In this document: positions 13,973 through 49,479 of the stretch, one piece after another | How positions within the stretch are numbered: the first letter of the stretch is position 1 | Layout of the letters: each line of letters opens with the position of its first letter | Source of the DNA: Rotaria socialis | Lineage: Eukaryota | Length of the DNA stretch: 64,000 bases | NCBI GenBank assembly: GCA_905331295.1 | Contig: CAJNYD010000546.1 | Location: forward strand, 1-64,000 | Direction of reading: 5' to 3' | Program-made: the position numbers and the translations under genes | Notes under the pieces: model-generated | Databases searched by the model: none | Seen by the model: only the letters and a program-made list of their open reading frames with translations | What the model was told of the DNA's origin: nothing

Positions 13973-16900
13973 ATGGCCAACATTTCATCTGATGTTCGTA
14001 ATTATTTCAAATTGGAACTTTTGTTAACACGTTCGCACGATCCACTTCGTCAACTGTTTAAGAATCGTTATTCTCAATTTAACGGTGGTCAAATATGGAA
14101 TGATACACCCACATGTGGAACAAATTATTTGACTAATGTCATTAAAAAGAATAAAAAAATTAGTTTAACAAAAGTGCAAAATATATCTGTTTCGCATGGC
14201 GATTCAAATGAATGGGATTTGACTACAATAAATGCTCTTCTCATATTTGGTGACCGTCCAAAAACACTAAACGCAGCTGAAATACAACAGCTCGACGAAG
14301 AAGATAAATCATTGAAACAACTGAGAGAAATTCGAAATAATTTGGCTCATCACGCGTCGAAATCCGTTGATAATGTTGAATTTAATCAGTTGTGGACTGA
14401 TTTAACGACAATTCTAGTTGCACTCGGTGATATAGACACTGAATTAGATAAACTAAAGGATGACAGTATTTTCGAAGCTCCTACTCAAGTAATTAATGAA
14501 GATAACGTGAAAGAAGCATCACGTTTAAACTCACTTGGCACTCAAGCTCATAAAGATGGGAAATTTTCCGAAGCAATCACATTATTTACAAAAGCAATAG
14601 TTTTATCGGGTGTTGTAGATCATGACCGTGCTATTTTCTTTTCTAATATGGCTTCTACTCGTCTTGCACTGTATGAGCAACAAGCAGGTTCTATCGGAAG
14701 ATTTGAAATTAAAGATTCAATGGATGAACGATATCGTGCACTGCAAGATGCTAAAAAAGCCCGAAATCTTTGGCCTTCATGGTGGAAAGGACATTTACGT
14801 GTTGGAAAAGTATACGCTGTTTTGAATGAACATGGCAAAGCGATTAATTCATTTGAACGAGCACTGGCTCTCGATGCCACAAACGACGAAATAAAGAAAG
14901 CATTGGATGAAAATCGTACAATACACAGTCAACAACTGTCGCACAACCATCTTAATCCAGAACTAAGACCAATGTCGATACCTGAACGATTGAATGAAAA
15001 ACAGCAGAAATTCGGTACAGATCCAGAGGACACACTCCTTACTCTACGCTTTCTTGAAGAAATCGATCCAGCCGTAGCGGATTTGACGCAAGGACACAGA
15101 TACGAACATGGAGATATTGATGTTAAACAAAATTATGAAACAGCAGCTCGGTATTTTTCAAAAGCAGCAAGCCAAAGCAATGCAGAAGGATTATATAATA
15201 TAGCTCGATTGACTGATCTTGGTCTTGGTGTGAAGAAGGATCATAAGTTAGCTCAAACCTTTTATGAGCAAGCAGCTGCACAACCACCAATGTATTCGAA
15301 ACTAAAAAATTTTCGAAATCCGGGTGTAGCAGAAGCCGAACATGCTTTAGGTCTTCGATACGCTGAAGGTATCGTCGTTCACAAAAATCTAAAAACTGCT
15401 GTGTATTGGTATGAACGGGCTATCGCTCACGAATATTTTCCAGCAGCCAATACTTTGGCTTTGATGTACTACAACGGTATTGGTGTGCAAATGAATCTTG
15501 ACAAGGCAGAACAATTGTTTGAAATGGCAGCTAAAAAAGGTGATGCAATGGCTATGCAGAGTTTAGCAAAGATGTTGTTGGATAAAAATGAACTTCAAAT
15601 GGCAACGATATGGTATGATCGAGCGTGCGAATCAGGCAATATTATAACTCAAACTAACCGTCTTATGTTTGAGAAATTGTTGCAGGAAAAGCAGCAAGAA
15701 ATTGGCAAATGTCCACTAAAAACTGTGAAACAGATTAATGCAACAGGAAATGTTTCAGAATCATGTCATGGAAAAGAGAACGAAGATAAACAAACTGACC
15801 AGTCCCACGAGAATGATTATAACATTTTAATTGAACATGCCAATCTTGGTTCGATAACCGCAAGGAAAATGTGTGATGTTCTGCAACATTTAGAGCAAGC
15901 ATTAAGTATAATCAAGCAAGCAAAAACTTTAACAGAAAATGAAGAAAACGTATTTGTACACGAACTGTCACTATGCTTTCGTATCGAACCTATAGTCGGT
16001 CGATTTCCTACTATAGAAATCAGGCAAAAAACAGATGAAATTGTTGATCGCGTTCTTCATCGATGTGCTACGGAAACCAAATCAACTAATGGTGTCTCAC
16101 AACTCGATGAAGATGTTCGACTATGTTACGCTGTTTTACATATGGACTCACTAAGTGAAATCGTTGAGTTTCTTTGTCCATGTAAACAAAAATATCCGAA
16201 ATCAATTATTTTTTTCCAGTTAAGTGCGGCAGCAAACGGTTCGCTAGGTCAATATGAGACAACATTATATGATACTAATATCGGATTAGAAATAGATCCA
16301 CACAACTCTGAGTTATTGTATAAAAAAGCCGTGGCATTGCGACTATTAGGTAAGGATATGAGCGAGACTATCACAGCGTATCACAGCGTATCAAGCATTT
16401 CTCGCAGTCGCTCCCAAGGATCATCGAAAAGTACCAGAATCATATTATGCAATGGCAAGTTGTTATTTTGCACACGAAAAGCACCAAGACATTATTGATA
16501 ATGTCAAGAAAATATATCAGCAAGGCGAAGAAGCGGAAAAACAACAATTACCATATTTTCTACCTTATGAATCGAACATTAAAACCCTTATTAAACAGAT
16601 GCTCGATGAAAAATCTTCGCTAAATATAGAGTCACCAACTCCTGTTATTAATAATAAATCACGACTAAGAAATCCGAATCGAATTGCAGTTATACTGGAA
16701 CATCGTAAATGGCAAAGCACATTCCTACAAGCGAGTGACAGTTCATTTCGTCATGTCGCATACACTACTCGTAAACCTCGAGTTCCGCAGCGAACAGCCA
16801 AATCGTTGATTGGATTGAAACCAATTACAATAAGAGAAATGAATCCAATAAATGATCATGTTTACGAAGGATATGTGCTTTCGGTAACAATCATAGGAGA

Positions 16901-17285
16901 GGCTTATTCGTGGAAGCCATCAATTCATCTGGTGATTGAAGATGAACATCTCGATTGCATAAAAATATGTGTTTATGGTTGTCCTGAAGATCAGGGAGAA
17001 TACTTTACTACGAAAGTGTTTAGAATTGGCAGTAAAATGAATATTATTAATCCATACCTACGAATACCTCCACGTGACCAGATACCAGTGGTTCGTGTCG
17101 ATGAGTTTTCATCAATTATGATGCAAAGTGAATCTGAATACATAGTCAATATGTGTCGATGTTGTGGAGAAGCAAATGCATTGCATGTTTGCAGTAAATG
17201 TAAACAAGCATGTTATTGTACAAAAGAATGCCAAAGTATAGATTGGGAATTATATCAACATAAACTTATATGTAAGAAACAATAA
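13973..17285 (+). CDS. HEPN (DZIP3-like)-TPR-SEL1 repeat-TPR-MYND zinc finger protein, frameshifted by a 10-bp tandem duplication
   Basis: Intronless. WDLTTI plus RNNLAH (Rx4H) in the N-terminal domain; TPRs (WWKGHLRVG..FERALALD); SEL1 repeats (AEGLYNIARL..GLGVKKD); C-terminal CRCC..CSKCKQACYCTKECQSIDW..HKLIC. Deleting one TCACAGCGTA (16371-16390) joins ORFs 13973 and 16452 into 1100 aa. Confidence 0.85.
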
Positions 17286-22994: not shown

Positions 22995-25208
22995 ATGGCA
23001 ACCAGTGATCATCAATTATCTAATGATAATGGGAGTTACAATCCTTTTTTCGAAAAGAAACTGATCGAAGAAAACCGTAAAGATGGATACTGGATTGAAG
23101 CTTTTAAAGTTGACAATCAAAGTCCTATTGGATTGATAGGATATGGACTTAGTTATGGACAAGTCAATTTTTATCCAAATCCATGTACAACTACAGAACC
23201 AGGAAAAGCAATTCGTATTCAAGATCTACCAGGTCCTGTAGCCATGGATCAAGCTGATATTACAGGCAATGGAATTAATGACATTATTATCTGTTATAAA
23301 TATGGTAACACAATGGTAGATTGCGATCCCACCGGGGGAAAGATCATATGGTTGCAAAATCCAGGACCGAAACTCGAACAAGAACAATGGATATCCCATT
23401 ATATTGGAAGATCTACAGCAATGCACAGACTTAAAGTCGGCCATTTCACACAAAACACGCGTTTGGAGATTATAGGTTTGCCTATTGTAAACGAGCCATA
23501 TAATTTACTTGCACCAGTACCTGTGCTATTATTTCAACAACCTGACGATGTATTAAATACTAAAGAGTGGCCTTGTGAAATAATAGATAAAGAATTTTTT
23601 CATATGATTCACGATGCAAAAAAATTTAATACGGGCTCATTAGATAATCTTCTTATTGCATCACGCGAAGGCATTAATTGGCTTTACTTTGATGAAAAAT
23701 TTCACAAATGGACTATTGAACATATTGGAGAAGGAGAACAAGAAGAAAAGCAGCAAACAACTTATTACGGTAGTGGATGTGTAGATGCAGGAAAAGTTGG
23801 AAATGATTCTTTTGCGTATATTCCTACTGTCGAACCTTTTCATGGAAATGTAGTTGCTGTCTACATTAAAAGTACCGACAATTATTTGAAACAAATTCAA
23901 TGGAAAAGATATGTACTGGATGTTTATGGATACCCTAACGAACATGGTGAAGGTCCAGCCCATCATATCGTTTGCGCTGATTTTGACAAAGATGGAGACG
24001 ATGAATTCTTAGTGGCACTTCGAGGACCATCTCCAAATCAAGGTGTCTACTATTATAAACCTATCGATCTTTCTCGTGGTTTATTTGCTAAATGGAAAGT
24101 TAGTAGTGATTCTGCTGCTAGAATTACTGTTGCTGATTTTGATAATGATGGCTTGCTAGACTTTGCAACCATTAGTTATTACGTTCCTGGCTATTACGAA
24201 GCTGAAAATCCATCTATTAACATCTATTACAATCGATATGCCAACAAGAGTGTACAAGGTCAAAAAGAGATACAAGTGACGAAGCAAAACAATGAACTTT
24301 TGTTCAAAGTTCCGAGACCAAACAAAATATTAAAATATGAAACACTGCCATTTACTGCTGTAGGAGGTATAGCTTTATCTTTAGAAGTCATACCACCTTG
24401 TAGTTCACGTCATGTCGGTAAAAACACCTATATCAAGGTTCTTTCTGGAATTATAAAGTGGACGAGTTGTGCTACAAAATCATCTGAAGAGGTACATCAT
24501 TCGCGTATGTTTCTCTGTACACCAAAAAGTGTTTCTTCGCTTGAGATACAAAGTAATGAAAATAGAGTATCAACAGGTAAAGAAGGTGCCATTTTGCTTG
24601 TATTAAAAATGGATGAATCCATGAAAGATATTCCTCAATTTGATTCTATTGGAAAAGTTACGATTGAGAATATATTACCAGAGTACTGTTCTGAAGAAAC
24701 TCGTAAACTTGGCTTTCAATTTATCAAATGTGATAGATATGAATGGGGAAAGGATAAATTCAAGGGTCTTGAATTTTACAATCTAACAGGTTTTACAGTT
24801 GATTTTGCTGACAATGATGAACATCTTTGCCACATGCAAATGTGGGCTGCGGGACAAGGTGTAAATTGTGGAGTACGCAATCTTTCTGATACTTTATCCT
24901 GTGAAGTTTATGCTTGTATCATCAATGGAACTGGACAAGGTGGCATGCAATATCTCAAAAGCTCGAAAGAAGAGTATGATCCACTCACTACCTCGGATTC
25001 AAAATTCCAAAATTTACCAGTACCATCTTTTTATGAACATGGTCCTATATGGGATATCGATGCACAAAAAAAAACAGTTTTCCGAGAAAATGGTACTGTT
25101 GTATATCCTTGCCACAAATGGCAATCTGGCAACAATGGTTCATCGATTCAATCATTTGACATTTGGATTGCTTTTGAATTCAATGCTCAATTATCAGCTT
25201 TACTTTAA
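22995..25208 (+). CDS. Aldos-2-ulose dehydratase/isomerase (AUDH)-like: beta-propeller plus cupin domains
   Basis: Intronless 737 aa. DGYWIEAF, AMHRLKVGHF, EPFHGN, HHIVCADFDKDGDDEFLVA, ADFDNDGLLDFATISYYVPGYY (FG-GAP-like propeller) and C-terminal NGTGQGGM, FYEHGPIW, YPCHKW match fungal/bacterial AUDH. Confidence 0.85.
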   Translation: MATSDHQLSNDNGSYNPFFEKKLIEENRKDGYWIEAFKVDNQSPIGLIGYGLSYGQVNFYPNPCTTTEPGKAIRIQDLPGPVAMDQADITGNGINDIIICYKYGNTMVDCDPTGGKIIWLQNPGPKLEQEQWISHYIGRSTAMHRLKVGHFTQNTRLEIIGLPIVNEPYNLLAPVPVLLFQQPDDVLNTKEWPCEIIDKEFFHMIHDAKKFNTGSLDNLLIASREGINWLYFDEKFHKWTIEHIGEGEQEEKQQTTYYGSGCVDAGKVGNDSFAYIPTVEPFHGNVVAVYIKSTDNYLKQIQWKRYVLDVYGYPNEHGEGPAHHIVCADFDKDGDDEFLVALRGPSPNQGVYYYKPIDLSRGLFAKWKVSSDSAARITVADFDNDGLLDFATISYYVPGYYEAENPSINIYYNRYANKSVQGQKEIQVTKQNNELLFKVPRPNKILKYETLPFTAVGGIALSLEVIPPCSSRHVGKNTYIKVLSGIIKWTSCATKSSEEVHHSRMFLCTPKSVSSLEIQSNENRVSTGKEGAILLVLKMDESMKDIPQFDSIGKVTIENILPEYCSEETRKLGFQFIKCDRYEWGKDKFKGLEFYNLTGFTVDFADNDEHLCHMQMWAAGQGVNCGVRNLSDTLSCEVYACIINGTGQGGMQYLKSSKEEYDPLTTSDSKFQNLPVPSFYEHGPIWDIDAQKKTVFRENGTVVYPCHKWQSGNNGSSIQSFDIWIAFEFNAQLSALL

Positions 25209-31700: not shown

Positions 31701-33145
31701 ATGATTCACTTTTTGGAACAAGCATATGAAGTTGCATATAAAGAAAAAACAACTGCATTCATAGAAGAAATCGATCGGCTAACTGATAAGAAGAAATTAG
31801 AACAATGTATTATTGATCTTCGTTCATATGGTTATTGCTCTGAAGAACGGTGGGACAACCGACAAGTGCCACAACTAAGCGTTGTCACGGTCATTCTCGA
31901 CAATCAATCTTGTAATGCATAGTACGCGGGACACTAAAGTTTTCGATAGTATGATTTTTCTTCTTGTTTTAGTATTAACGAGCGTGTGCCTGTGGTTCAG
32001 ATATTTTGCGCGCTCGTGCAGCGTGGTCTATTTGATAGAGATGCTGCTCAGAGTGCATATTTAAAGGATGCTGATGGTGTGGCAACATTCGAAATTGAGG
32101 AAAAGATTCCAATTCAACAACATGATGGTCGATATATCGTTCATCGGCGAGACAAATCCTTCAGCAAAATGAAAATTTTTATTCGCCGTTTCACTGGTAA
32201 AACTTTAACGTTGGATGCTCTAGCACAAGATAAAATAGAACGATTGAAGTGCCGAATCTATATTATGGAAGGTATACCCGTTGGCCAGCAACGTCTAATC
32301 TTTGCTGGTAAACAACTCGAAGATGAACGAACATTAGCTGATTACGGGATTTTACACGAAAGTACTTTTCATCTTGTGCTACCTTTGAGGGGCGGAAAAC
32401 CAATCATTCGTCTTCGTTCATTAAATAATCAGATCGTATCAAATGTTAGTGTTCATCTTCATCTAGCAAGTAATATTTGGAATTTATCAAGTATATATCC
32501 AATACCATCAAATACTGATCGAATGTCATTTATCGAATGGAATAATATTGAAGTTCATCCGGATGGACAATTGCATTTTAACAATGACATGAAAATCCAA
32601 CAAAGTGAGTTTATATTCTTTATTCAATCATCAATGATTTATCTTTACTCATTATTATAGATGATATGTTTCCAAATATTTCATTTGAACAAGATCATAA
32701 AATGCTCTTTTGGGAAGCATCGACGAATAACAGTATTACCTCAAAATTCAATTTAGATAAAAGTCTTTGTGTATCTCGGCATGATTTTTCTCGTATTCTC
32801 AATTATATGTTGAAAGAAATGACATTTTCATTAGAAGATCGTGATGATATGATTACTTATATTCTACCACAATTAGATGAAGAAGATCCAAATCACGAAT
32901 ATAAGAACGTTATATTTCGATTTCTTACACCTGATGAATATTCATCAGTAGCCGAACTTAATGTTCGTCCAACACCCGAACGAATGATTCGTGCATTTGT
33001 TGTATTTAGTCTAAGTGATGATAAGACAAATATCTCAACTATGGAAGATATAAATGGAATGTTGATGAATTGGAAATTTTCTGAAGACGAAAATGATAGC
33101 GGCTTGTTAGTACATGAATGGGGTTCGATGTTTGTACCTTATTGA
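31701..33145 (+). CDS. Protein with an internal ubiquitin domain fused to a C-terminal KPVIYLY/FWE/EWG-type domain
   Basis: Exons 31701-31921, 31973-32604, 32661-33145 join in frame (445 aa). A 76-aa ubiquitin at 32169-32396 ends in LRGG and is followed by KPIIRL...LFWEA...VHEWGS. Further 5' exons (31194-31521) are possible but unresolved. Confidence 0.75.
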
Positions 33146-34381: not shown

Positions 34382-35380
34382 CTAGCTTCTATCCTTGGCA
34401 GCAGTAGAAATGATATCAGCCATTCTCGACAGAACATTCGGTGATGTCACCCTTTTTGACGGAGTTTTGTTCATCATCCATAATGCGAAGTTATCAGCTA
34501 GAATTTCTTCCGGATGTATTATATAATATGTATTTTGTCCGATTTGATGAAAAAAATTTTCAGCTTCTTCATATGCTAAATATTGTAACGGTTCTAATGG
34601 CTCGTATGTGTTATCATCTAAGATTAAAGTTGTTGCCTTCAGATAATCAAAGAAATTGGTAGAAAATTGAGGATCAAAATTTCGAGAAGCAAGTAAAATT
34701 GGTGTACATTTATATATTTTTTCCGTTCGATCTCGAAGTTTTTTCAATTCAATATAATATTTCAAAACAAGAGGTGCATCTGGATTAGAGATTTTTATTT
34801 TTTCTAAACTGACTGGAAATTCGATTGACTTTTCGCCTGGTATTTTATGGTATCCAATACTTGCATATAATTCATTGCGTGTTATTAAATTGCTATGCCA
34901 TTTACTCCATATATGAAATAATTCATGAACAAATATTTTACGAATCAGTCCACCACGAATAATACCTATTGGCATTACAATAACATTTTCATTTCGGCAA
35001 TATGCAGCATTACTTTCACCTTTCCCATTTGTTAACACAACATATATTTGTGGTGGATAAGTTAATAAATTTAGTTTCTCTTGACAAGTTGTATTGATGA
35101 ATTCAATACAGGATGTCATAACCTGGCTTGATTCTTCGTCCCAAGTTAAGATTTGTTCCCCGATAAACTTGATATAATCTTGAATTGTCGATGAAGGCAA
35201 ATTTAAACGGGATTCTAAATCAAACTGACTTAAATTAGCAATATAATCATCGACTTTTTGTAATGCGTCGATAGCTTGTTGACCTGATACTAATTCAATG
35301 ATGGATGAGTTTGCATTTTTCAATATAAATGTTTTGTTGGATGAATTGTATGATGTTGATGAAGCACTATCAGTACTCAT
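34382..35380 (-). CDS. Zincin-type metallopeptidase-like protein, bacterial-like
   Basis: Intronless 332 aa; NAAYCR..VIVMP..FVHELFHIWS (HExxH); distal YIIHPEEILADNF. Confidence 0.7.
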   Translation of the reverse strand: MSTDSASSTSYNSSNKTFILKNANSSIIELVSGQQAIDALQKVDDYIANLSQFDLESRLNLPSSTIQDYIKFIGEQILTWDEESSQVMTSCIEFINTTCQEKLNLLTYPPQIYVVLTNGKGESNAAYCRNENVIVMPIGIIRGGLIRKIFVHELFHIWSKWHSNLITRNELYASIGYHKIPGEKSIEFPVSLEKIKISNPDAPLVLKYYIELKKLRDRTEKIYKCTPILLASRNFDPQFSTNFFDYLKATTLILDDNTYEPLEPLQYLAYEEAENFFHQIGQNTYYIIHPEEILADNFALWMMNKTPSKRVTSPNVLSRMADIISTAAKDRS

Positions 35381-38335: not shown

Positions 38336-39499
38336 ATGAAAATGACAAGAAAAAATGCTGACATGAGTGAACTTTACTCTTGCTGTCGTAATAACGATAT
38401 AAATCGAGTAAAAGAATTAGTTAAAACGTTAACTTTGAATGAAATAGATCGCATCGAACCCAATGGAAGCACAGCTTTGCATGTTGCATCTTACTATGGA
38501 CATACTGAAATCGTTCGATTACTGTTAGAACGAGGTGCATCTCGTTCGATCAGAAATTCGCATGGTTACACACCAGAAATTGAATCGAGAACACATGAAG
38601 TCAAACAACTTTTTCTTCGTAAAAATGAAAACGATCGATATGTTTGTCATAGTGGCCAAATTCAATGGATGAAATCTGATGAGAACATTCACAGAGAAGC
38701 AGAAAAATGGCGTTGGATAATCAAACATTCATGGGAAGGTCGCAACCTCGATTGTCTTGTGCATGAAATTCAAACTGATTTTATTGATGTCGAGTTCAAA
38801 GAATCACAGCAATTCGAAATAATACAAAAGTTTTTCAATCAAGCTAGACAAGAAATGGATCCTATTTCTTTAATTAAAGCATATACAGCCGAAACTGATT
38901 TTTATAAACATCTTAATAAACAACTGGCCATAGTCGGTGGTAATTTTAAAAGTACCAATAGTGATGTTAACCGGTGTGGAATAAAATGCTATCTGCAAGT
39001 TATCTTCACGCATCGTGACTTTGATCGATTGAGTTATATTGGTGAATCTTATCGAGGCATGTCAATCTTTAAACATGACTTAGATCAATATGAAGTTGGA
39101 TCACAGATAATGAACAACTCGTTTTTATCTACATCGTCGGATTATCGAGTAGCGGAGAAATTTGCATTGGATAATATTGACAAAAACCAAGAGAAATATA
39201 CTGCAATTTGTACTTATAAAATACAGAATGTACGTACTGCATTAAGTATCATGGAAATCTCGGAATATGAAAACGAAAAAGAAGTTCTTGTAATGCCGTA
39301 CACAGCATTTCGAGTGATATCGATCCGTACGAATTCTACTAATCAAAATGATCAGCCGGATTTTTTAATTGATCTTGAAGAATGTTTACCAGCAAGTGAA
39401 CACGGTAATCAAACTAAAAATTTAGATACTCTGAAGCCGCTGACATTTCGTAAAAAGCTCAAACGAAAATTCAACAAATGGTTAGGAAATGAGATCTAG
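38336..39499 (+). CDS. Ankyrin-repeat mono-ADP-ribosyltransferase (ARTC, R-S-E clan)
   Basis: Intronless 387 aa. Ankyrin NGSTALHVASYYGHTEIVRLLL; ART motifs AYTAET, SYRG, FLSTSS, SEYENEKEVL. Confidence 0.9.
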   Translation: MKMTRKNADMSELYSCCRNNDINRVKELVKTLTLNEIDRIEPNGSTALHVASYYGHTEIVRLLLERGASRSIRNSHGYTPEIESRTHEVKQLFLRKNENDRYVCHSGQIQWMKSDENIHREAEKWRWIIKHSWEGRNLDCLVHEIQTDFIDVEFKESQQFEIIQKFFNQARQEMDPISLIKAYTAETDFYKHLNKQLAIVGGNFKSTNSDVNRCGIKCYLQVIFTHRDFDRLSYIGESYRGMSIFKHDLDQYEVGSQIMNNSFLSTSSDYRVAEKFALDNIDKNQEKYTAICTYKIQNVRTALSIMEISEYENEKEVLVMPYTAFRVISIRTNSTNQNDQPDFLIDLEECLPASEHGNQTKNLDTLKPLTFRKKLKRKFNKWLGNEI

Positions 39500-39751
39500 A
39501 TCAGGTACTTCAATCAAGATTTTTTGCTTTAAACAATATCAGCAATGGAAGTTGATGTTATTTTGTAATAGTAAATTTGCATTTTACCAATGCTTCTAAG
39601 TCGATGACCTTCCCCACGCTCTTCATAATAGTTGTGCTTATTTTTACTAAAATTATGATAACTAACTATGAGTGTAAGTTAAATGTTATGTAAAAAGTTG
39701 AAATACGAAATTTTTCAGATTTAAATAAATTTTCCGCTCAAGTTTTTAACG

Positions 39752-40882
39752 ATGTCATCTCATCATGAAGTTGAAATGGAAAGTTTGATATCGTCGCCTA
39801 ATCTGGTGTCAACGCCACGATTTATCAGCGACATTGATGAACTACAGAATCCAATCTTCGAAATTACGTCTCCACTACAGCCGTCGCGCCAACGTCGCAT
39901 TACTATTAAAGTGTTGCTTGATATTGCGCTTTTTGTGATACTTCTAGCAACTGGCCTATGGTTATTTGCTAACGTCGGTCGAAGTCTCTTATTAAAATCG
40001 TTTGGGGATGCATTTCTTATCACAGGCATAATGCTTGCAATATTAAGTATATGGTTAGTTTTAACAGGAGCATCAATGTTTCGAAAAATCAATCTATTAA
40101 AACTGATAGCTGCTCTTATTGTACTCATCATTGGACTTTCTCTGATTCTCATGGGTAACAAAGAAAATCGACTAGCCGTTGGTTATGCTTTGTTCGCTAC
40201 TGCATTGCTGATATTGATAACAAAATTTTTTTTTCTCATTGAAGATGAACAAATTCGGATTGAACGTTTAGAACGAGAATTGAAAAAAGCAAAGCAATCA
40301 GCTGGAATGGGTATGGCTTTGTCTTACTTCTACAATTTTATTGTGCCTACAGCAGCAAATATACGATCGATGGACGAGGGACATACACCAATCGATATGG
40401 AAGTCAGTCGTGGAAAATTCGAAGAATATCAGTTGACGACCGATCAATTGTTTGTTATTGTACCTCGTGATCTTGACGGTTCTGATATGAAGGTATTTCT
40501 AAAAAACGTATCATCATCCCCGAATCCGTCTGTTATACAAGGAAAACCAAAAGAACGACCAGGTAATGATACACATCGTCCGATGTTCGTGTATTTTCTT
40601 GAATGGGACCCAGCAAAAAAAGAATGTAACGGTCTATTTGATATTCCAACAATAATATCGGCATGCTGGGATCGACGTAAACACGGAAAAAATGATCAAC
40701 ACGATACGATCAATATTACTGATGAAATAATGATATTTCAAAATCAACTTCTTTCATTGATTAATGAACATCCAATAACATATGGAAAAGTACGCATTCT
40801 GAGTTTTCCATCACTACCGTTTCGTTTCTCGGACATTAAATATGTTGTAACACAACTAGCTCATGGTGCAGCTTTAGAATAG
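39752..40882 (+). CDS. Four-TM protein with a C-terminal STING ligand-binding domain (bacterial-like STING)
   Basis: Intronless 376 aa. Four hydrophobic helices (~aa 52-162), a coiled linker, then GMALSYFYNFIVP, LFVIVPRDL, RPMFVY and FDIPTII, which resemble STING-fold signature segments. Confidence 0.7.
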   Translation: MSSHHEVEMESLISSPNLVSTPRFISDIDELQNPIFEITSPLQPSRQRRITIKVLLDIALFVILLATGLWLFANVGRSLLLKSFGDAFLITGIMLAILSIWLVLTGASMFRKINLLKLIAALIVLIIGLSLILMGNKENRLAVGYALFATALLILITKFFFLIEDEQIRIERLERELKKAKQSAGMGMALSYFYNFIVPTAANIRSMDEGHTPIDMEVSRGKFEEYQLTTDQLFVIVPRDLDGSDMKVFLKNVSSSPNPSVIQGKPKERPGNDTHRPMFVYFLEWDPAKKECNGLFDIPTIISACWDRRKHGKNDQHDTINITDEIMIFQNQLLSLINEHPITYGKVRILSFPSLPFRFSDIKYVVTQLAHGAALE

Positions 40883-41221
40883 AGAACATGACTATGGATT
40901 AATAATAATAACTGATTTTTACGATGAATAAAGACTAGTGATTAGCAGAGATATTCGCTCATTTTTGGAAATATCTAAAAAGAGATCTCAGGTGAGGAGA
41001 GAACCCGTCCAGCAGGTCCTACTCCTAGTGTGGAGCAGTTCTCGGTTTGAAACTTTGACAGAAATTTTCAAAAGAAAAGTGACTATGCAGAATCTTAACA
41101 CTTATGAAAGCTATAGTACGATTGTTTCGAATTCTACATGCATTGCTTCGTTTGCTATCAATTAAATAACTTAAAAATAACGGCGCAAATTGTATTGCCA
41201 TAATTAATTAGAAGAGATACG

Positions 41222-42773
41222 ATGTATTATAGCTTGAAAGAATTACTTATCAATGATTATTTTAAATTCAATGATAATAAAAGTGATGATACTAAATCAG
41301 TTTGTATAGATAATGAACAGCATGTTTATTATAATGTCATGTATCATAAAAAAACGACTAGAGATTATTTGCGTACAGTTCTGCATCATCCAATTTATGA
41401 GTATTTTTTGACGTTTGTTATTATATCCAGTTCAATAACAGTTGGTTTAAGCTTAGAAACAGATGAAAATAATAAAAATAATAATTATCGCCAAAACTTG
41501 GTTTACGCATTTGATGAAATCTTCATTGCAATATTGTTTCTTGATTTTTCTCTTAAAATATATCTAGAATCATGTCATTATTGGGTTGATTGGACAAATC
41601 TGTACGATTTTATTATTATTCTTTTTGGTCTTATTGAAATTATTTGGAATTTATTTGTTCAAAAACAATATTCAGCTATAAGAAACTTATTAAAAGGCTT
41701 CCGATTATTACAATTAATACGCTTACATCGAATCATAAGATTATTTGATGGTCTACAATTATTAACGCAAGCTTTAATGAAAACCGTATTGACATATACA
41801 TTCAGCGTTGTTATTCTTGTTTTCTTATTTATTTATATTGTTGCTGTTATTGGACAAATTCTTTATGGTAGATCAGAAGATAGGTAACGGAGATATGTGA
41901 GGTAGCTAAAAAGTCATAGAATCGTGTAAAACCATGCACCAGGCAGACAATAGATCTTTTTAGAACGTACACGAAACTGTACAAATAAATCGCATTAGAT
42001 TCAATAATGACGATCTTCTTCTTCTTTAGTCTTTGGCATCATTTTTCTACGTCATTATCTATTGCTACGCGATTAACATTAGTCGACAATTGGAATTTAA
42101 TTGAACCCGAACTTGAAAATCACGGTAGTCCACCAATATCCCGTTGGTTTCTGATAATTATAGTTTTTGTTGGTAATCGTATCGTTACCAATGTCCTCGT
42201 TGGATTAATGATTGAAAGTGTATCATCTGTCAATGATGATTATATGAAAGAAAAACGTGAAAAGAAAAATTTACGTAATCAAAAAAAGCGTGAAGAATTA
42301 AGTAAACGTAAGTATTATTGAACATGAAGTTCGAATTAAAAAAGCAAACTACTTAGGTACAACGCAAATATTTAATACAAGAGCTTCAGATACGAATAGT
42401 AAAACAAATAGAATCGAACAGACAAAAGAACTCATCAAATCCAAATTAAATTGGCTTCATAATGAAATCATTTCTCCGAAAGATTTCATATTTTTAATTG
42501 ATTGGTTGGAGAAGCTAGTTGCATGCAGGTAATATTTAAATGCTGCTTACTGATTGACCAGCAATGTATTAGTTACATTAGAATTTTTCAAATATAGTAT
42601 TCTAAACTCTATTACTTTCTAGCGAGAAATCTCAGATCGAAGTTAAATCAATTCATCGTCTGATAATACATAATATTCAATCGTTATCATATGTAATCAA
42701 TGAAAATATGAAGAAAAACGAATATAAATTGACAAAATTGGACGATAAATATCATGACAACAGCAATACATGA
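41222..42773 (+). CDS. Single-domain 6TM cation channel, CatSper3-like
   Basis: Exons 41222-41883, 42030-42307, 42357-42528, 42623-42773 join in frame. S4 FRLLQLIRLHRIIR; S5; pore TLVDNW; S6 TNVLVGLMIE; C-terminal coiled coil. Confidence 0.75.
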
Positions 42774-45292: not shown

Positions 45293-45856
45293 TCATTTTC
45301 TTCTTTCTATTTCATCAAATGGCTCCGTATCCTTATAACAACGAAGAAAAACATGATCGATAATTTCATCGAGTTTTTTTCTTGGAAAATTTGTGCAAAT
45401 TTCCATCGATTCTCGTGTTCGATCTTTTACACATGATGAATGTTGATTTTTTAATAAAAATGGCCGCGATGATGATGATAAATGATTGAATAGAGAACAA
45501 TGATTTGATAATGATGCTGCACGAATTTCGGTACAGGCAAGATGATATGGATTATTGAAATCTATATTAACACGACAATAATCATAGGCATGAATAAGTT
45601 CATGTTCGAAAATAGTACAAAATTCTTCTGATGAATGAAGATTTTCAGGATATAAAATTATTTGACATGTCGAACGATCAAAACCACCACGTAGATTTTC
45701 ATCATTCGTTTCACAGGCTAAATGACGATGAAAATCAAATGTACAACCACGAGACGATAATGATTGTAATAAACGTTGAATAGATTCACGTTTGGTAATA
45801 CATTGATGTGCTTGTTCATAGCAATTACGAATTATTGGGTTTAGTTCATCCGGCAT
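45293..45856 (-). CDS. ATP23: Mitochondrial inner membrane protease ATP23
   Basis: GGFD, HELIHAYDYCR, HLACTEIRAASLS, CYKDTEPFDEI. Likely start MPDELNP at 45856. Confidence 0.92.
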   Translation of the reverse strand: MPDELNPIIRNCYEQAHQCITKRESIQRLLQSLSSRGCTFDFHRHLACETNDENLRGGFDRSTCQIILYPENLHSSEEFCTIFEHELIHAYDYCRVNIDFNNPYHLACTEIRAASLSNHCSLFNHLSSSSRPFLLKNQHSSCVKDRTRESMEICTNFPRKKLDEIIDHVFLRCYKDTEPFDEIERRK

Positions 45857-46161
45857 GTTTTCCTTGAACCTAAAATGACAGATATTATGCCAGTCCCCTC
45901 GAGAAAAAAGAAGCATGATAATACTTGATATCGGTAGATTAATTACGGATGAACTTGGAATGGTTATCAGATATTTTCTTGATGCAAAGAATGATTGATT
46001 ATCTGAATTTGACGACTGGATATGTAAGAGTGAAAACAAAAAATGTCGCTATTAGTTATGAAGACAATAAACTTTTTCGGGATTGAAGGAATAGAACAGC
46101 CTATTGGATAACGGATCAAAGTTTGTAACATTTATTTTTATTATCATTTGAAAAATAAACG

Positions 46162-46698
46162 ATGGGTGCAACATCATCGCAGACTGAGAGTCACTATCAA
46201 CCTGATTTTGGAACATTTGATAAACTGAAAGCCATTGATATCGATGGAAATGAAAAGCCGATGTCGGATTTTCAAGGAAAAGTTCTTATGGTCGTTAATG
46301 TAGCATCGTCATGTGGTAAAACCGATCGCGAATATAAACGTTTAGTTGATTTATATGCTCGTTATCGTGAGCAAGGCTTCGAAATTTTAGCATTTCCCTG
46401 CAATCAATTTCTTTATCAAGAACATGGTACATGTTCAACAATAAAATCCTTCATTAAAAAATATAATGTTGAATTTCCTATGTTCGATAAAATTAATGTC
46501 AATGGTGATGATACACATCCGATCTATGCCTGGCTGAAACAAAGTTATCCTGGTCGTGTAACATGGAATTTCTCAGGAAAATTTCTAATCGATCATCATG
46601 GTGTGCCACGTGCACGTGCCAATGATAATTATGATGAAATCGAAAAAATTATTCAAAATTTACTAAAAGAAAAACAAGATGCAGAAAATAAGCACTAA
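46162..46698 (+). CDS. gpx: Cys-type glutathione peroxidase (PHGPx-like)
   Basis: GKVLMVVNVASSCG, ILAFPCNQF, WNF; intronless; N-terminus MGATSS. Confidence 0.93.
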   Translation: MGATSSQTESHYQPDFGTFDKLKAIDIDGNEKPMSDFQGKVLMVVNVASSCGKTDREYKRLVDLYARYREQGFEILAFPCNQFLYQEHGTCSTIKSFIKKYNVEFPMFDKINVNGDDTHPIYAWLKQSYPGRVTWNFSGKFLIDHHGVPRARANDNYDEIEKIIQNLLKEKQDAENKH

Positions 46699-47453
46699 TT
46701 TTTTGTGATCATTTTTATGATTTTGTGATATGAAACCGGAAGACATCACTTTTTTTTGATACCTCAAGCTATTCGTATTGTCAATGATTGGAATAGAATA
46801 AATGTCTATTGTGATGCGAGAAGGAAATTCAGTTATTTAAGTGGTATATTGCCGGAGGGTGTATAGGAGGGAGAGAAGAAAAAAAGAAAAAGTGCTAAAT
46901 GCCGTCTGTTTTCTAGTTGTCACTGAGGTTCATGAAAAATATGTATCGAATCATTTGGAATATTTCGACTTTATGATGGCAAATAAAAGACCATTCGATG
47001 ATGAGTAAGTGTTTATAGTTCTTTTTCGCCAATTAAATCTTATTTACAGTCACTTGCAACACTCTTAACAATCTACCCGCTGTGCAAAAAACAGATGATC
47101 GGTCAGATAATTTTCAAAAAAAAATAAATCTCTAGTTTTTCAACCAATAAACCATTAGACAGCGTACTATATTAAAATGTGATATGATGACATTGATTTC
47201 TTAATTTGTAATACATAGAATTTTCTCATTACATCACCGCTGATGAATGTCAAACATGATCTGAAATTATCATGAGAATTTTCTCATTGTACTCTTACCA
47301 AAACGAATGAGATCATCAAGAGAACAACGAGTTGCCAGTGTTTTTTTTCTGTTCATCTTTGATCTTCTCATTTCGTATATAAACAGAAGGAGAAATTTAT
47401 TCGTACATCAGAATAGTTCCTTTTTTTCTTCTTCTCTTCTATTTAGACTCGAT

Positions 47454-49479
47454 ATGCCATTGCTGAATAGTGATTTACGAAAAGAATTTCTCGCATATAT
47501 CAATCAACCTGAATCATGCGAATTATTTTACATCTACATGAAATCGGAACAATTGGCATATGTACTGGAATTTTATTTAGCGTGTGATGGTCTAAAAAAT
47601 TTAGCTGATGATAAAAAAAATCAATGTGCTATTATTAAACTTATTTTTAAACATTATTTATCACATGGAAAATCTTTATCATCATCAACGATATTTTCTC
47701 TGCCAGACGATTTACTTTCGTCGATAAAACAATGTTTAACAAAACACGAATTTCATCTGAAATTTTACGATCAAGCACAAGAATATGTTCTTAAATATAT
47801 GTTACAAATGTGTTATCCGAAATTTCTCATTGAACAACAAAATTCACCGGAAACAAAGCGGCAAGCTTTGACGGCACCGAAGTTCACGCCGATGCATCGT
47901 CGCTGTATATCAATACGGAAAAAAGATGTTTTCGAAAAATTCAAACAGCAATCAAATCTTTCGTAAGTTTCCTACAGAAGAATAATCGATTTTTATTCGT
48001 ATTAAAATATTCAGTGTGAAATTTGACGTTAAAGATCTATAATTGAGAAAAAAAAATATGAATACTAATTAATGATCTTATTTCTTTTTCGAGTGTTACT
48101 CTATGCCTATTAAAATGACATGTCAATAGCCTATCGACCTCAGGTGAGTGCTGTTAATTCAATTCAGACGACCACAAAAAAAAAGAAAAGAAGGTGTCAT
48201 CATTAAACCATATGTTCATGTGTGACATATGCTTGAAAAAGAAGAAGAATCTGTCTGCGGGCTACGCTCATCATAATGATGATCAAATACGTGTGCCTGT
48301 GCATTTCGTCACACTTTCGCTTGAATACTTGATTGTAGAAAAAGAAAAGAACAATCTGTAGATTACCCCTGATAGATGATTAAGCGTCGGCCGTTTTGCA
48401 TCAAAGTATGTGCGCTCTCCTTTTGATCGTTCTAACTTCTAACATTGTCGCTTCCTTTCATCTTGTCAACATGAATCAGATTCAATTAGATTACACTATG
48501 ATGCCACCGCCGCCGCCGCCACCACCGTCGACATAGAAAAAGAAACAGAAACAGAGACATATACATATCTTTCATTTGAGTCTGCATGTATACTTATGTG
48601 AACAATGACATTATTACTCATGCCTCACCCTTATTATTTGTAAGTTTTGCACAACAAAAATCGAAATCTGAATTGTTATTTTTAGTTCATTGGAAAGTTC
48701 GACCGTAATCGCTGATAATCAAATTGGATTGAATAGTTCAAAACAATCAGTAAGTGGAAAAATGTTTAGATTAAAAAAAAAATATTGTTGATTTTATTTT
48801 CAGCGATCTACAAAAGTAATAAAACAAGAAAAAAATCTATGTAGTCTTGCTCAACGAAATCCATCGGCATTTTTCGAAGAAATTAAAACTCGTTTATTAG
48901 CATATCAAACTGAAATTCCTGATCTCATGATTGGCGATGATCCATTCGCTGTTCTTGATTTACAAATAGCAAAAACAATTGATGATGCTGATAATTTTCT
49001 AAATGAAAGTTCGATCGATCATTTTACAAGATATGATTCAGGTGTGGGAACAGATTCATCAGAAAAGTAAATCAACTATAAATTTTTCTTCGTTAATAAA
49101 TTGAAAATTTCGTTTCTGCGTTAAGAAATTATGAAACATTTTGTACAAAAAGACGATATCCATCAATTGATGTTATATGGAATCCATCACTCGATAGTAA
49201 CAATGCTCTTCTATCGACAATTCCTCGTATTTATAATAGATTAACATTTAAAGAATTTCGACAATTATTTAAAAAACAAACAACATATAGGTATGAATAA
49301 AAATCTATAAATAACGATAATGATTGTTGTACAGTCTATGTTTTAGATATTTCTTTAAAACAATATGTACGCCTGATATTAATAAAGAGCAGTATGTCTA
49401 TCGAGAATTAACCATGGACGATGAATTAGTACCATTTTTTGATGGAAAAATTTTTGTACAATTAGATCGAATCTATTGA
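47454..49479 (+). CDS. axin: Axin-like protein (RGS plus DIX domains)
   Basis: RGS exon (LEFYLACDGLK...YDQAQEYVLKYM..CYPKFL). Later exons have NPSAFFEEIKTRL, DPFAVLDLQI and DIX (LTFKEFRQLF..YRYFFKT..VYREL..VPFFDGKI); stop at 49477-49479. Confidence 0.88.

Follow-up and report, generated by a model that had tools for sequence, protein, structure and literature searches.

An intron-free open reading frame of Rotaria socialis (contig CAJNYD010000546.1, positions 1 to 64,000 of which are the window analysed here) raises the question of how an animal genome comes to hold a four-transmembrane (4TM) protein whose soluble half resembles the STING of bacteria, and of what such a receptor would read. 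An earlier note, made from the letters alone, had taken the protein for a horizontally acquired cyclic-dinucleotide receptor, possibly sensing bacterial c-di-GMP directly.

The gene, its transcript and its neighbours

Contigs of two runs, X9 and X10, which represent two organisms and two studies, span positions 39717–40946 without joints or gaps, and both begin at 39717 behind an identical 17-nt 5' end that is not genomic. Joined to the genomic AG, these 17 nt are identical to the final 19 nt of the Rotifera spliced leader, which is 23 nt long (PMC3795323, Table 1), and they had no match in the 64-kb window with up to two mismatches allowed. At the other end, poly(A) follows position 40946 in the X10 contig, 14 nt past the AATAAA signal, and the X9 contig stops at 40946 too. 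No run is recorded as RNA, and it is the leader and the poly(A) in the contigs that identify them as mRNA. The leader in X9 and X10, the poly(A) in X10 and the continuity of both contigs thus show that the intron-free STING gene is transcribed and its mRNA trans-spliced and polyadenylated, and the claim of an intronless gene is borne out at the transcript level.

Within the range of the contig comparison (38300–42400), a 9.7-kb DNA contig of run X7, which may be the source of this DNA, holds the STING gene and both neighbours in one piece, and an X5 contig from another study joins the end of the upstream gene to the STING gene. Orthologues at 72–98% identity were found in R. magnacalcarata, R. 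socialis, R. sp. Silwood1, R. sp. Silwood2 and Didymodactylos carnosus on contigs of up to 6.8 Mb; the 90% cluster of the query protein includes R. magnacalcarata and R. socialis proteins, and the orthologues of the two Silwood species and D. carnosus show 72–82% identity. The GC content (0.37) and GC3 (0.28) of the STING ORF are host-like, lying inside the range of eight other window ORFs. Because the spliced leader occurs in two studies, poly(A) is present, five species have orthologues and a DNA contig crosses both neighbours, contamination of the assembly is very unlikely and the host is a Rotaria rotifer, in keeping with the animal genome to which the earlier note assigned the gene. Moreover, the codon changes between the query and run X10, a small sample of 8 non-synonymous and 9 synonymous (pN/pS 0.26, Fisher p = 0.0065), point to purifying selection on the blSTING gene.

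On the same strand, 252 nt upstream, lies a single ORF for ankyrin repeats and an NAD:arginine ADP-ribosyltransferase (ankyrin-ART; 38336–39499, +). This gene is covered by X9 and X10 contigs, and an X10 contig continues through the spacer to 39706; the ankyrin-ART and STING genes may lie on one precursor transcript that is resolved by trans-splicing, and a functional pairing as receptor and NAD-using effector is possible. Directly downstream of the STING gene, an ion-transport-family gene with at least one intron occupies 41222–42321 (+) and possibly extends further. Concerning the more distant neighbours named earlier, Axin is supported in part, by an RGS domain at 47307–47963 and a weak DIX match at 49100–49297 (E = 0.0076); no confirmation was obtained for CFAP298, since none of three separate exon-like frames matched a Pfam family. 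Further observations in the window comprise a single ORF for aldos-2-ulose dehydratase/isomerase (beta-propeller and cupin; 22995–25208, +), an enzyme of fungi and red algae and likely another foreign gene; an ORF with HEPN (DZIP3-like), TPR and Sel1 domains overlapping a second one with OB-like and MYND domains (13973–17285, +), the two being perhaps parts of a single gene interrupted near 16452–16498 by an intron or frameshift; a ubiquitin-like domain ORF (32169–33145, +) followed after 5 nt by a 159-aa ORF without Pfam match; a 332-aa single ORF (34382–35380, −) without significant Pfam or NCBIfam match; and an ATP23-like peptidase M76 (−) and a glutathione peroxidase (+) ORF arranged head-to-head about 245 nt apart (45293–46698).

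Architecture and fold of the encoded protein

The four motifs singled out in the earlier note, namely GMGMALSYFYNFIVP (40304–40348), LFVIVPRDL (40448–40474), HRPMFVY (40574–40594) and FDIPTII (40637–40657), were found at these positions. A hydropathy scan detected four hydrophobic helices (aa 54–72, 87–105, 115–133 and 145–163) in agreement with helices H52–79, H85–105, H108–134 and H137–160 of an AlphaFold model computed with 20 homologues as input (mean pLDDT 72.5, ligand domain mostly 80–90, TM region 50–67), which supports the claim of four TM helices. The N-terminal segment of aa ~21–40, predicted to be ordered, may pack on the ligand domain. The chain ends six residues past the last helix (H359–370), and two motif patterns for a TBK1- and IRF3-binding tail had no match in the query protein, so that the tailless reading holds. 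A C-terminal tail is normally absent from invertebrate STINGs, and its absence therefore does not mark foreign origin. The features of the locus are listed in Table 1.

Table 1. Features of the STING locus in window coordinates.
Feature	Position	Strand	Evidence
Single-exon CDS, 376 aa, 4TM bacteria-like STING (blSTING)	39752..40882	+	ORF, Pfam, homologues, transcript contigs
Trans-splice acceptor, T-run then CAG, AG at 39717–39718; rotifer spliced leader joined here	39710..39718	+	Leader-bearing contigs
5' UTR downstream of spliced leader, 33 nt	39719..39751	+	Contigs X9, X10
Poly(A) signal AATAAA (40927–40932) and cleavage site near 40946	40927..40946	+	X10, X9 contig ends
Conserved N-terminal segment, aa ~21–40, strand E34–37; predicted ordered	39812..39871	+	Block pLDDT 75–84; similar segment in full-length homologues of the alignment
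Four transmembrane helices, aa 54–163, homologous to those of protist blSTINGs	39911..40240	+	Hydropathy, AlphaFold, TM-region matches
Charged connector helix, aa 166–182, running into dimer helix	40247..40297	+	AlphaFold H166–182; conserved in homologue alignment
STING cyclic-dinucleotide-binding domain (predicted), aa ~181–355, bacterial type	40292..40816	+	Profiles, Foldseek, VIA-align
Dimer-helix pocket residues S191, Y192, N195, F196, P199; F196 aligns with PcSTING F171 (guanine stacking)	40322..40348	+	Alignment
Lid strand H275-R276-P277-M278-F279; R276 aligns with PcSTING R233, M278 replaces Y235	40574..40588	+	Alignment
D297-I-P-T300-I301; aligns with PcSTING D252 (guanine N2 contact), T255 (backbone contact), I256 (steric block of 2'3'-cGAMP)	40640..40654	+	Alignment

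The Pfam profile of prokaryotic STING (prok_STING, PF20300) matched the whole protein at E = 1.5e-5 with 25.4 bits, just below its cut-off of 27.1, and aa 177–376 alone with 27.5 bits, just above it. The animal profile STING_LBD (PF15009) had no match in the whole protein at E ≤ 1 or in the domain alone at E ≤ 0.1, and was absent from the proteins P0003, P0004 and P0005 too; aa 1–180 matched no Pfam family at E < 0.05. Matches to Cap12 and PADLOC profiles fell in the STING half of the protein only, and no TIR domain was found in the protein. When a 20-sequence family profile was compared with the PDB, bacterial STING chains made up five of the six matches (best 6wt4, E = 5.9e-5). The family profile was needed for these STING matches: a single-sequence search of the PDB yielded cytochrome bo3 subunit IV as chance matches. 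With the model as query, all Foldseek matches listed were STINGs, bacterial or animal (best E = 1.6e-6), and VIA-align superimposed aa 178–354 on SfSTING with Z = 13.7. Bacterial STINGs hold ranks 1 to 8 in the latter comparison (Z 13.7–12.1) and a coral STING ties at 12.1; since this structural margin over animal STINGs is small, the assignment to the bacterial type is carried by the sequence profiles. Profile searches, family profile and both structure comparisons thus put the STING match beyond chance, in agreement with the bacterial-type STING domain proposed earlier.

Family membership and origin

Non-animal 4TM proteins with a STING domain have been defined as blSTINGs, which occur across several supergroups, choanoflagellates included; the definition was made from sequence alone and functional studies were called for (Culbertson and Levin, 2023; PMC10732462). 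Published members from Cavostelium, Stenamoeba and Pinguiococcus score 21–26 bits with PF20300. A first homologue search for the rotifer protein gave 19 clusters, five of them named as bdelloid and three as protist, and an unfiltered HMMER search gave 88 homologous proteins. Names, carried by fewer than all matches, were looked up for 30 proteins: the non-animal ones were Cavostelium, Stenamoeba, Pinguiococcus, Didymoeca, Hondaea and Emiliania, and no animal other than bdelloids was among them. The query is 51% identical to the Cavostelium, 46% to the Stenamoeba and 37% to the Pinguiococcus protein. Comparison with 60 of the 212 prok_STING rows in the published STING table identified accession-exact entries for Cavostelium (P019189), Stenamoeba (P002361), Didymoeca (P020842) and Emiliania (P035710), and for Pinguiococcus the species and the domain coordinates agree with those of a table row (PMC10732462). 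Among the 53 homologues scanned, 47 match prok_STING and four match STING_LBD, all four below its cut-off; the prok_STING annotation is already attached to these rotifer proteins in databases. Judged by its sequence, the protein belongs to the protist blSTING group. No report of an animal blSTING was found in literature searches outside subscription journals, and rotifers are not mentioned in the text or in five supplements of the defining study (PMC10732462).

Relatives beyond the eukaryotes were sought with the family alignment, which found none in 15 candidate stretches from bacterial and archaeal genomes and none among 40 candidates from viral contigs; plasmids gave four matches only, at chance level (E = 4–5), and metagenomes two distant loci out of 136 candidates. 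Fused forms of 820–2340 aa were absent from 7993 scored candidates, which is weak evidence. One blSTING-like protein of 733 aa (P0074) holds two prok_STING stretches and is possibly a single-chain pseudo-dimer.

The trees built here hold blSTINGs and bacterial STINGs only; for outgroups, PF20300 matches were drawn from a single bacterial phylum (11 of 401 genomes), and 10 were used. From the domain tree were left out P0056, P0066, P0112, P0113 and P0094 (partial or weak domains), the near-duplicate P0002, L035 (whose frame did not match the domain) and other short fragments among the 88 HMMER matches. The rotifers form one clade in all trees (100/100). They group with Cavostelium in the 32-row full-length tree (97/93), and the 58-row domain tree places them within a group of proteins from Cavostelium and Stenamoeba (94/92); the 18-row tree shows the fork joining them with Cavostelium without resolution. 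The STING domain shares 55–56% identity with amoebozoan blSTINGs, 43% with that of the choanoflagellate and 21–25% with the four bacterial proteins aligning along the domain. Furthermore, the TM region (aa 30–180) matched the blSTINGs of Cavostelium (2.6e-19), Stenamoeba (3e-18) and Didymoeca (2.8e-12) and had no match among the bacterial STING proteins, 11 in number (best E 0.77). As the resemblance to protist blSTINGs thus extends to the membrane region, a microbial eukaryote is the likely donor, and not a bacterium. We consider acquisition of the gene by transfer from a microbial eukaryote probable, and an amoebozoan-like donor is favoured. Of the horizontal acquisition put forward earlier, foreign origin is retained as likely; the immediate donor probably already possessed a ready-made 4TM blSTING.

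That the gene came straight from a bacterial Cap12/Cap13 gene of CBASS, or is a contaminant of the assembly, is hardly credible. The best solved structural relatives of the domain are bacterial and the domain tree does not reject a grouping of rotifers with bacteria (p-AU 0.12, a value concerning the attachment of the long bacterial branch beside the rotifers), but the 4TM region is common to protists and not to bacteria, the three bacterial TM-type STING proteins examined having one or two hydrophobic helices each, and the family alignment finds no bacterial or viral locus; contamination is contradicted by the spliced leader, the poly(A), the orthologues in five named species and the DNA contig over both neighbours. 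This explanation is already largely refuted.

It is improbable, too, that an ancient eukaryotic blSTING was inherited vertically, retained by bdelloids and lost from other animals. The distribution of blSTINGs over several supergroups with choanoflagellates among them would fit such a history (PMC10732462), as would the weak deep nodes of the trees and the lack of rejection of a group of rotifers, choanoflagellate and Hondaea (p-AU 0.28 and 0.29). However, a clade of rotifers and the sole named choanoflagellate alone was rejected in three AU tests (p-AU 0.0008, 5e-80 and 0.0004), the domain is nearer to amoebozoans than to the choanoflagellate, the named matches include no further animal, and the STING gene is intron-free where its neighbours bear introns. 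Moreover, uptake of foreign genes is frequent in bdelloids.

Returning to transfer from a microbial eukaryote, its age may be estimated from the host range. Among the bdelloids sampled, no deeper split is known than the one that separates Didymodactylos, as a distant outgroup, from Adineta and Rotaria (PMC7943196), so that the presence of the gene in Didymodactylos implies a putatively old acquisition. Adineta, R. sordida and Brachionus were not found among the named blSTING matches, most matches being without a name, and this distribution suggests that blSTING may have been lost patchily in rotifers. The rotifer protein is a well-supported further blSTING, in a new kingdom for the family, and as far as the literature searches reach the blSTING family is hereby extended into Metazoa. 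Under the transfer reading, an animal would have acquired a complete innate-immune receptor from a different eukaryote. This is less surprising in view of the earlier description of the blSTING family and the commonness of foreign genes in bdelloids.

Ligand pocket, mode of action and comparison with known STING systems

In bacterial STINGs, the pocket includes F171 (guanine stacking), R233, D252, T255 and I256 (said to block 2'3'-cGAMP) of PcSTING and N168 of MySTING, and the lid carries either the RX(Y/F) c-di-GMP motif of class I or the RXR motif of class II (PMC8748872). Via alignments, the PcSTING residues correspond to F196, R276, D297, T300 and I301 of the query, and N168 of MySTING to N195. 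In 48 eukaryote-type rows, Y192, D297 and P299 are invariant (48/48), N195 is kept in 47, T300 in 46 and R276 and F196 in 45 each; position 301 is variable, with I in 28/48. The lid reads R276-P277-M278, which matches neither bacterial motif, and its last position is M in 31 and F in one of the 48 rows. A change from Y to R at the lid position of MySTING lowered the affinity for c-di-GMP about 1200-fold (PMC8748872). In the Didymodactylos carnosus protein (P0005), the N195 position is occupied by K, the sole case in the 48 rows, which may alter or abolish ligand binding. By alignment, most residues of the bacterial c-di-GMP pocket are kept, and we infer that the query binds a 3'3'-linked purine dinucleotide with looser specificity. 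Direct sensing of bacterial c-di-GMP by the rotifer blSTING, as suggested earlier, is plausible.

That the protein retained its STING fold while taking on a non-immune role or another ligand seems very improbable: the lid has no aromatic residue, N195K is present in the copy of Didymodactylos and the authors of the blSTING study name non-immune use as a possibility (PMC10732462), yet the other pocket residues are near-invariant in the 48 rows, as is expected with a nucleotide ligand still bound.

The best overall explanation, which we hold to be moderately probable, is that of a transferred protist-type blSTING that serves as a cyclic-dinucleotide receptor with output via its membrane domain. 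Following this, we propose that a pair of chains would enclose a single c-di-GMP or 3'3'-cGAMP molecule between F196, R276, D297 and T300, with I301 disfavouring 2'3'-cGAMP and Met278 relaxing the strict preference for c-di-GMP seen in class I bacterial STINGs. As the protein has neither a TIR domain nor a C-terminal tail, the output would most likely proceed via the TM domain, by ligand-driven oligomerisation and then an endomembrane leak of ions or protons, with non-canonical autophagy or cell death as the outcome. For such an output vertebrate STING offers a precedent: protons pass through its TM domain, driving non-canonical autophagy and cell death (PMC10897221; PMC11260435). Foldseek aligned the query along its whole length with human STING but at an rmsd of about 15, the TM region of the model having a pLDDT of 50–67, and full-length superpositions gave rmsd values of 13–20 (Foldseek, VIA-align).

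The most likely source of the ligand would be bacteria eaten by, or invading, the rotifer. Exogenous nucleotides have been proposed as blSTING ligands because the hosts mostly lack CD-NTases (PMC10732462). By contrast, Rotaria and Didymodactylos have predicted cGAS-like receptors (cGLRs; in Table S1, 10 rows for R. magnacalcarata and three for R. socialis; PMC9980059), so that the ligand may be self-made. With the same gene and origin, the receptor might read a 3'3'-linked dinucleotide from the rotifer's own cGLRs upon sensing viral or foreign nucleic acid, which we regard as possible but unlikely. Besides the predicted cGLRs, this would be in line with the fact that some animal cGLRs make 3'3'-linked products, preferred by the coral Sp-STING3 (PMC9980059), and with a lid lacking the strict c-di-GMP motif. 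On the other hand, none of the 14 window ORFs scanned encodes a CD-NTase or cGLR, and protist blSTINGs have the same pocket although their hosts mostly lack CD-NTases (PMC10732462). Additionally, Table S5 gives a single STING gene for either of two Adineta species and none for Brachionus calyciflorus, Rotaria having no row in it, and Adineta is listed with one cGLR and one STING gene (PMC9980059); since Adineta is missing from the named blSTING matches, bdelloid cGLRs may already have another receptor. A bolder version, rather doubtful in our view, is that a protist bacterial-type STING was grafted onto bdelloid immunity and in Rotaria reads the messengers of its own cGLRs, possibly replacing canonical STING, in a chimeric pathway acting via the membrane domain. 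If true, a sensor enzyme of the animal itself would be paired with a receptor of foreign origin. The defining study did not settle whether blSTINGs function without a CD-NTase, or by what means (PMC10732462); a rotifer with cGLRs would offer an animal test case, in which bacterial and self-made ligands are set against each other.

The preferred reading, a transferred blSTING with membrane-domain output, may be compared with three known systems. With bacterial CBASS Cap12 (TIR-STING) and Cap13 (TM-STING; SfSTING, PcSTING, MySTING and FsSTING), the query has in common the fold (Z 11.4–13.7) and equivalents of the PcSTING pocket residues. It differs from Cap12 in having no TIR domain, from Cap13 in having four TM helices instead of two, and from both in its R-P-M lid as opposed to RX(Y/F) or RXR and in a domain identity of 21–25%; unlike in a CBASS operon, no CD-NTase adjoins the gene, its neighbours being the ankyrin-ART and ion-transport genes. 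Canonical animal STING (TMEM173; human, Nematostella, Stylophora and Crassostrea) resembles the query in its layout of 4TM region and ligand domain and in the common fold (Z 10.7–12.1); the query, however, has no PF15009 match, shows 9–15% identity in structural alignments and carries YxNF and DIPT where animals have, as given by the earlier note, WSYYxGYL and EYATPL. It lacks the C-terminal tail with TBK1- and IRF3-binding motifs of vertebrate STING, as do invertebrate STINGs. Closest are the blSTINGs of microbial eukaryotes, whose hosts are typically without CD-NTases, whereas Rotaria encodes predicted cGLRs (PMC10732462; PMC9980059); a further difference is the processing of the rotifer mRNA with the rotifer spliced leader. 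Four N-terminal helices and a PF20300-type STING domain are common to both, and the query groups with listed members of this family in all three trees (PMC10732462).
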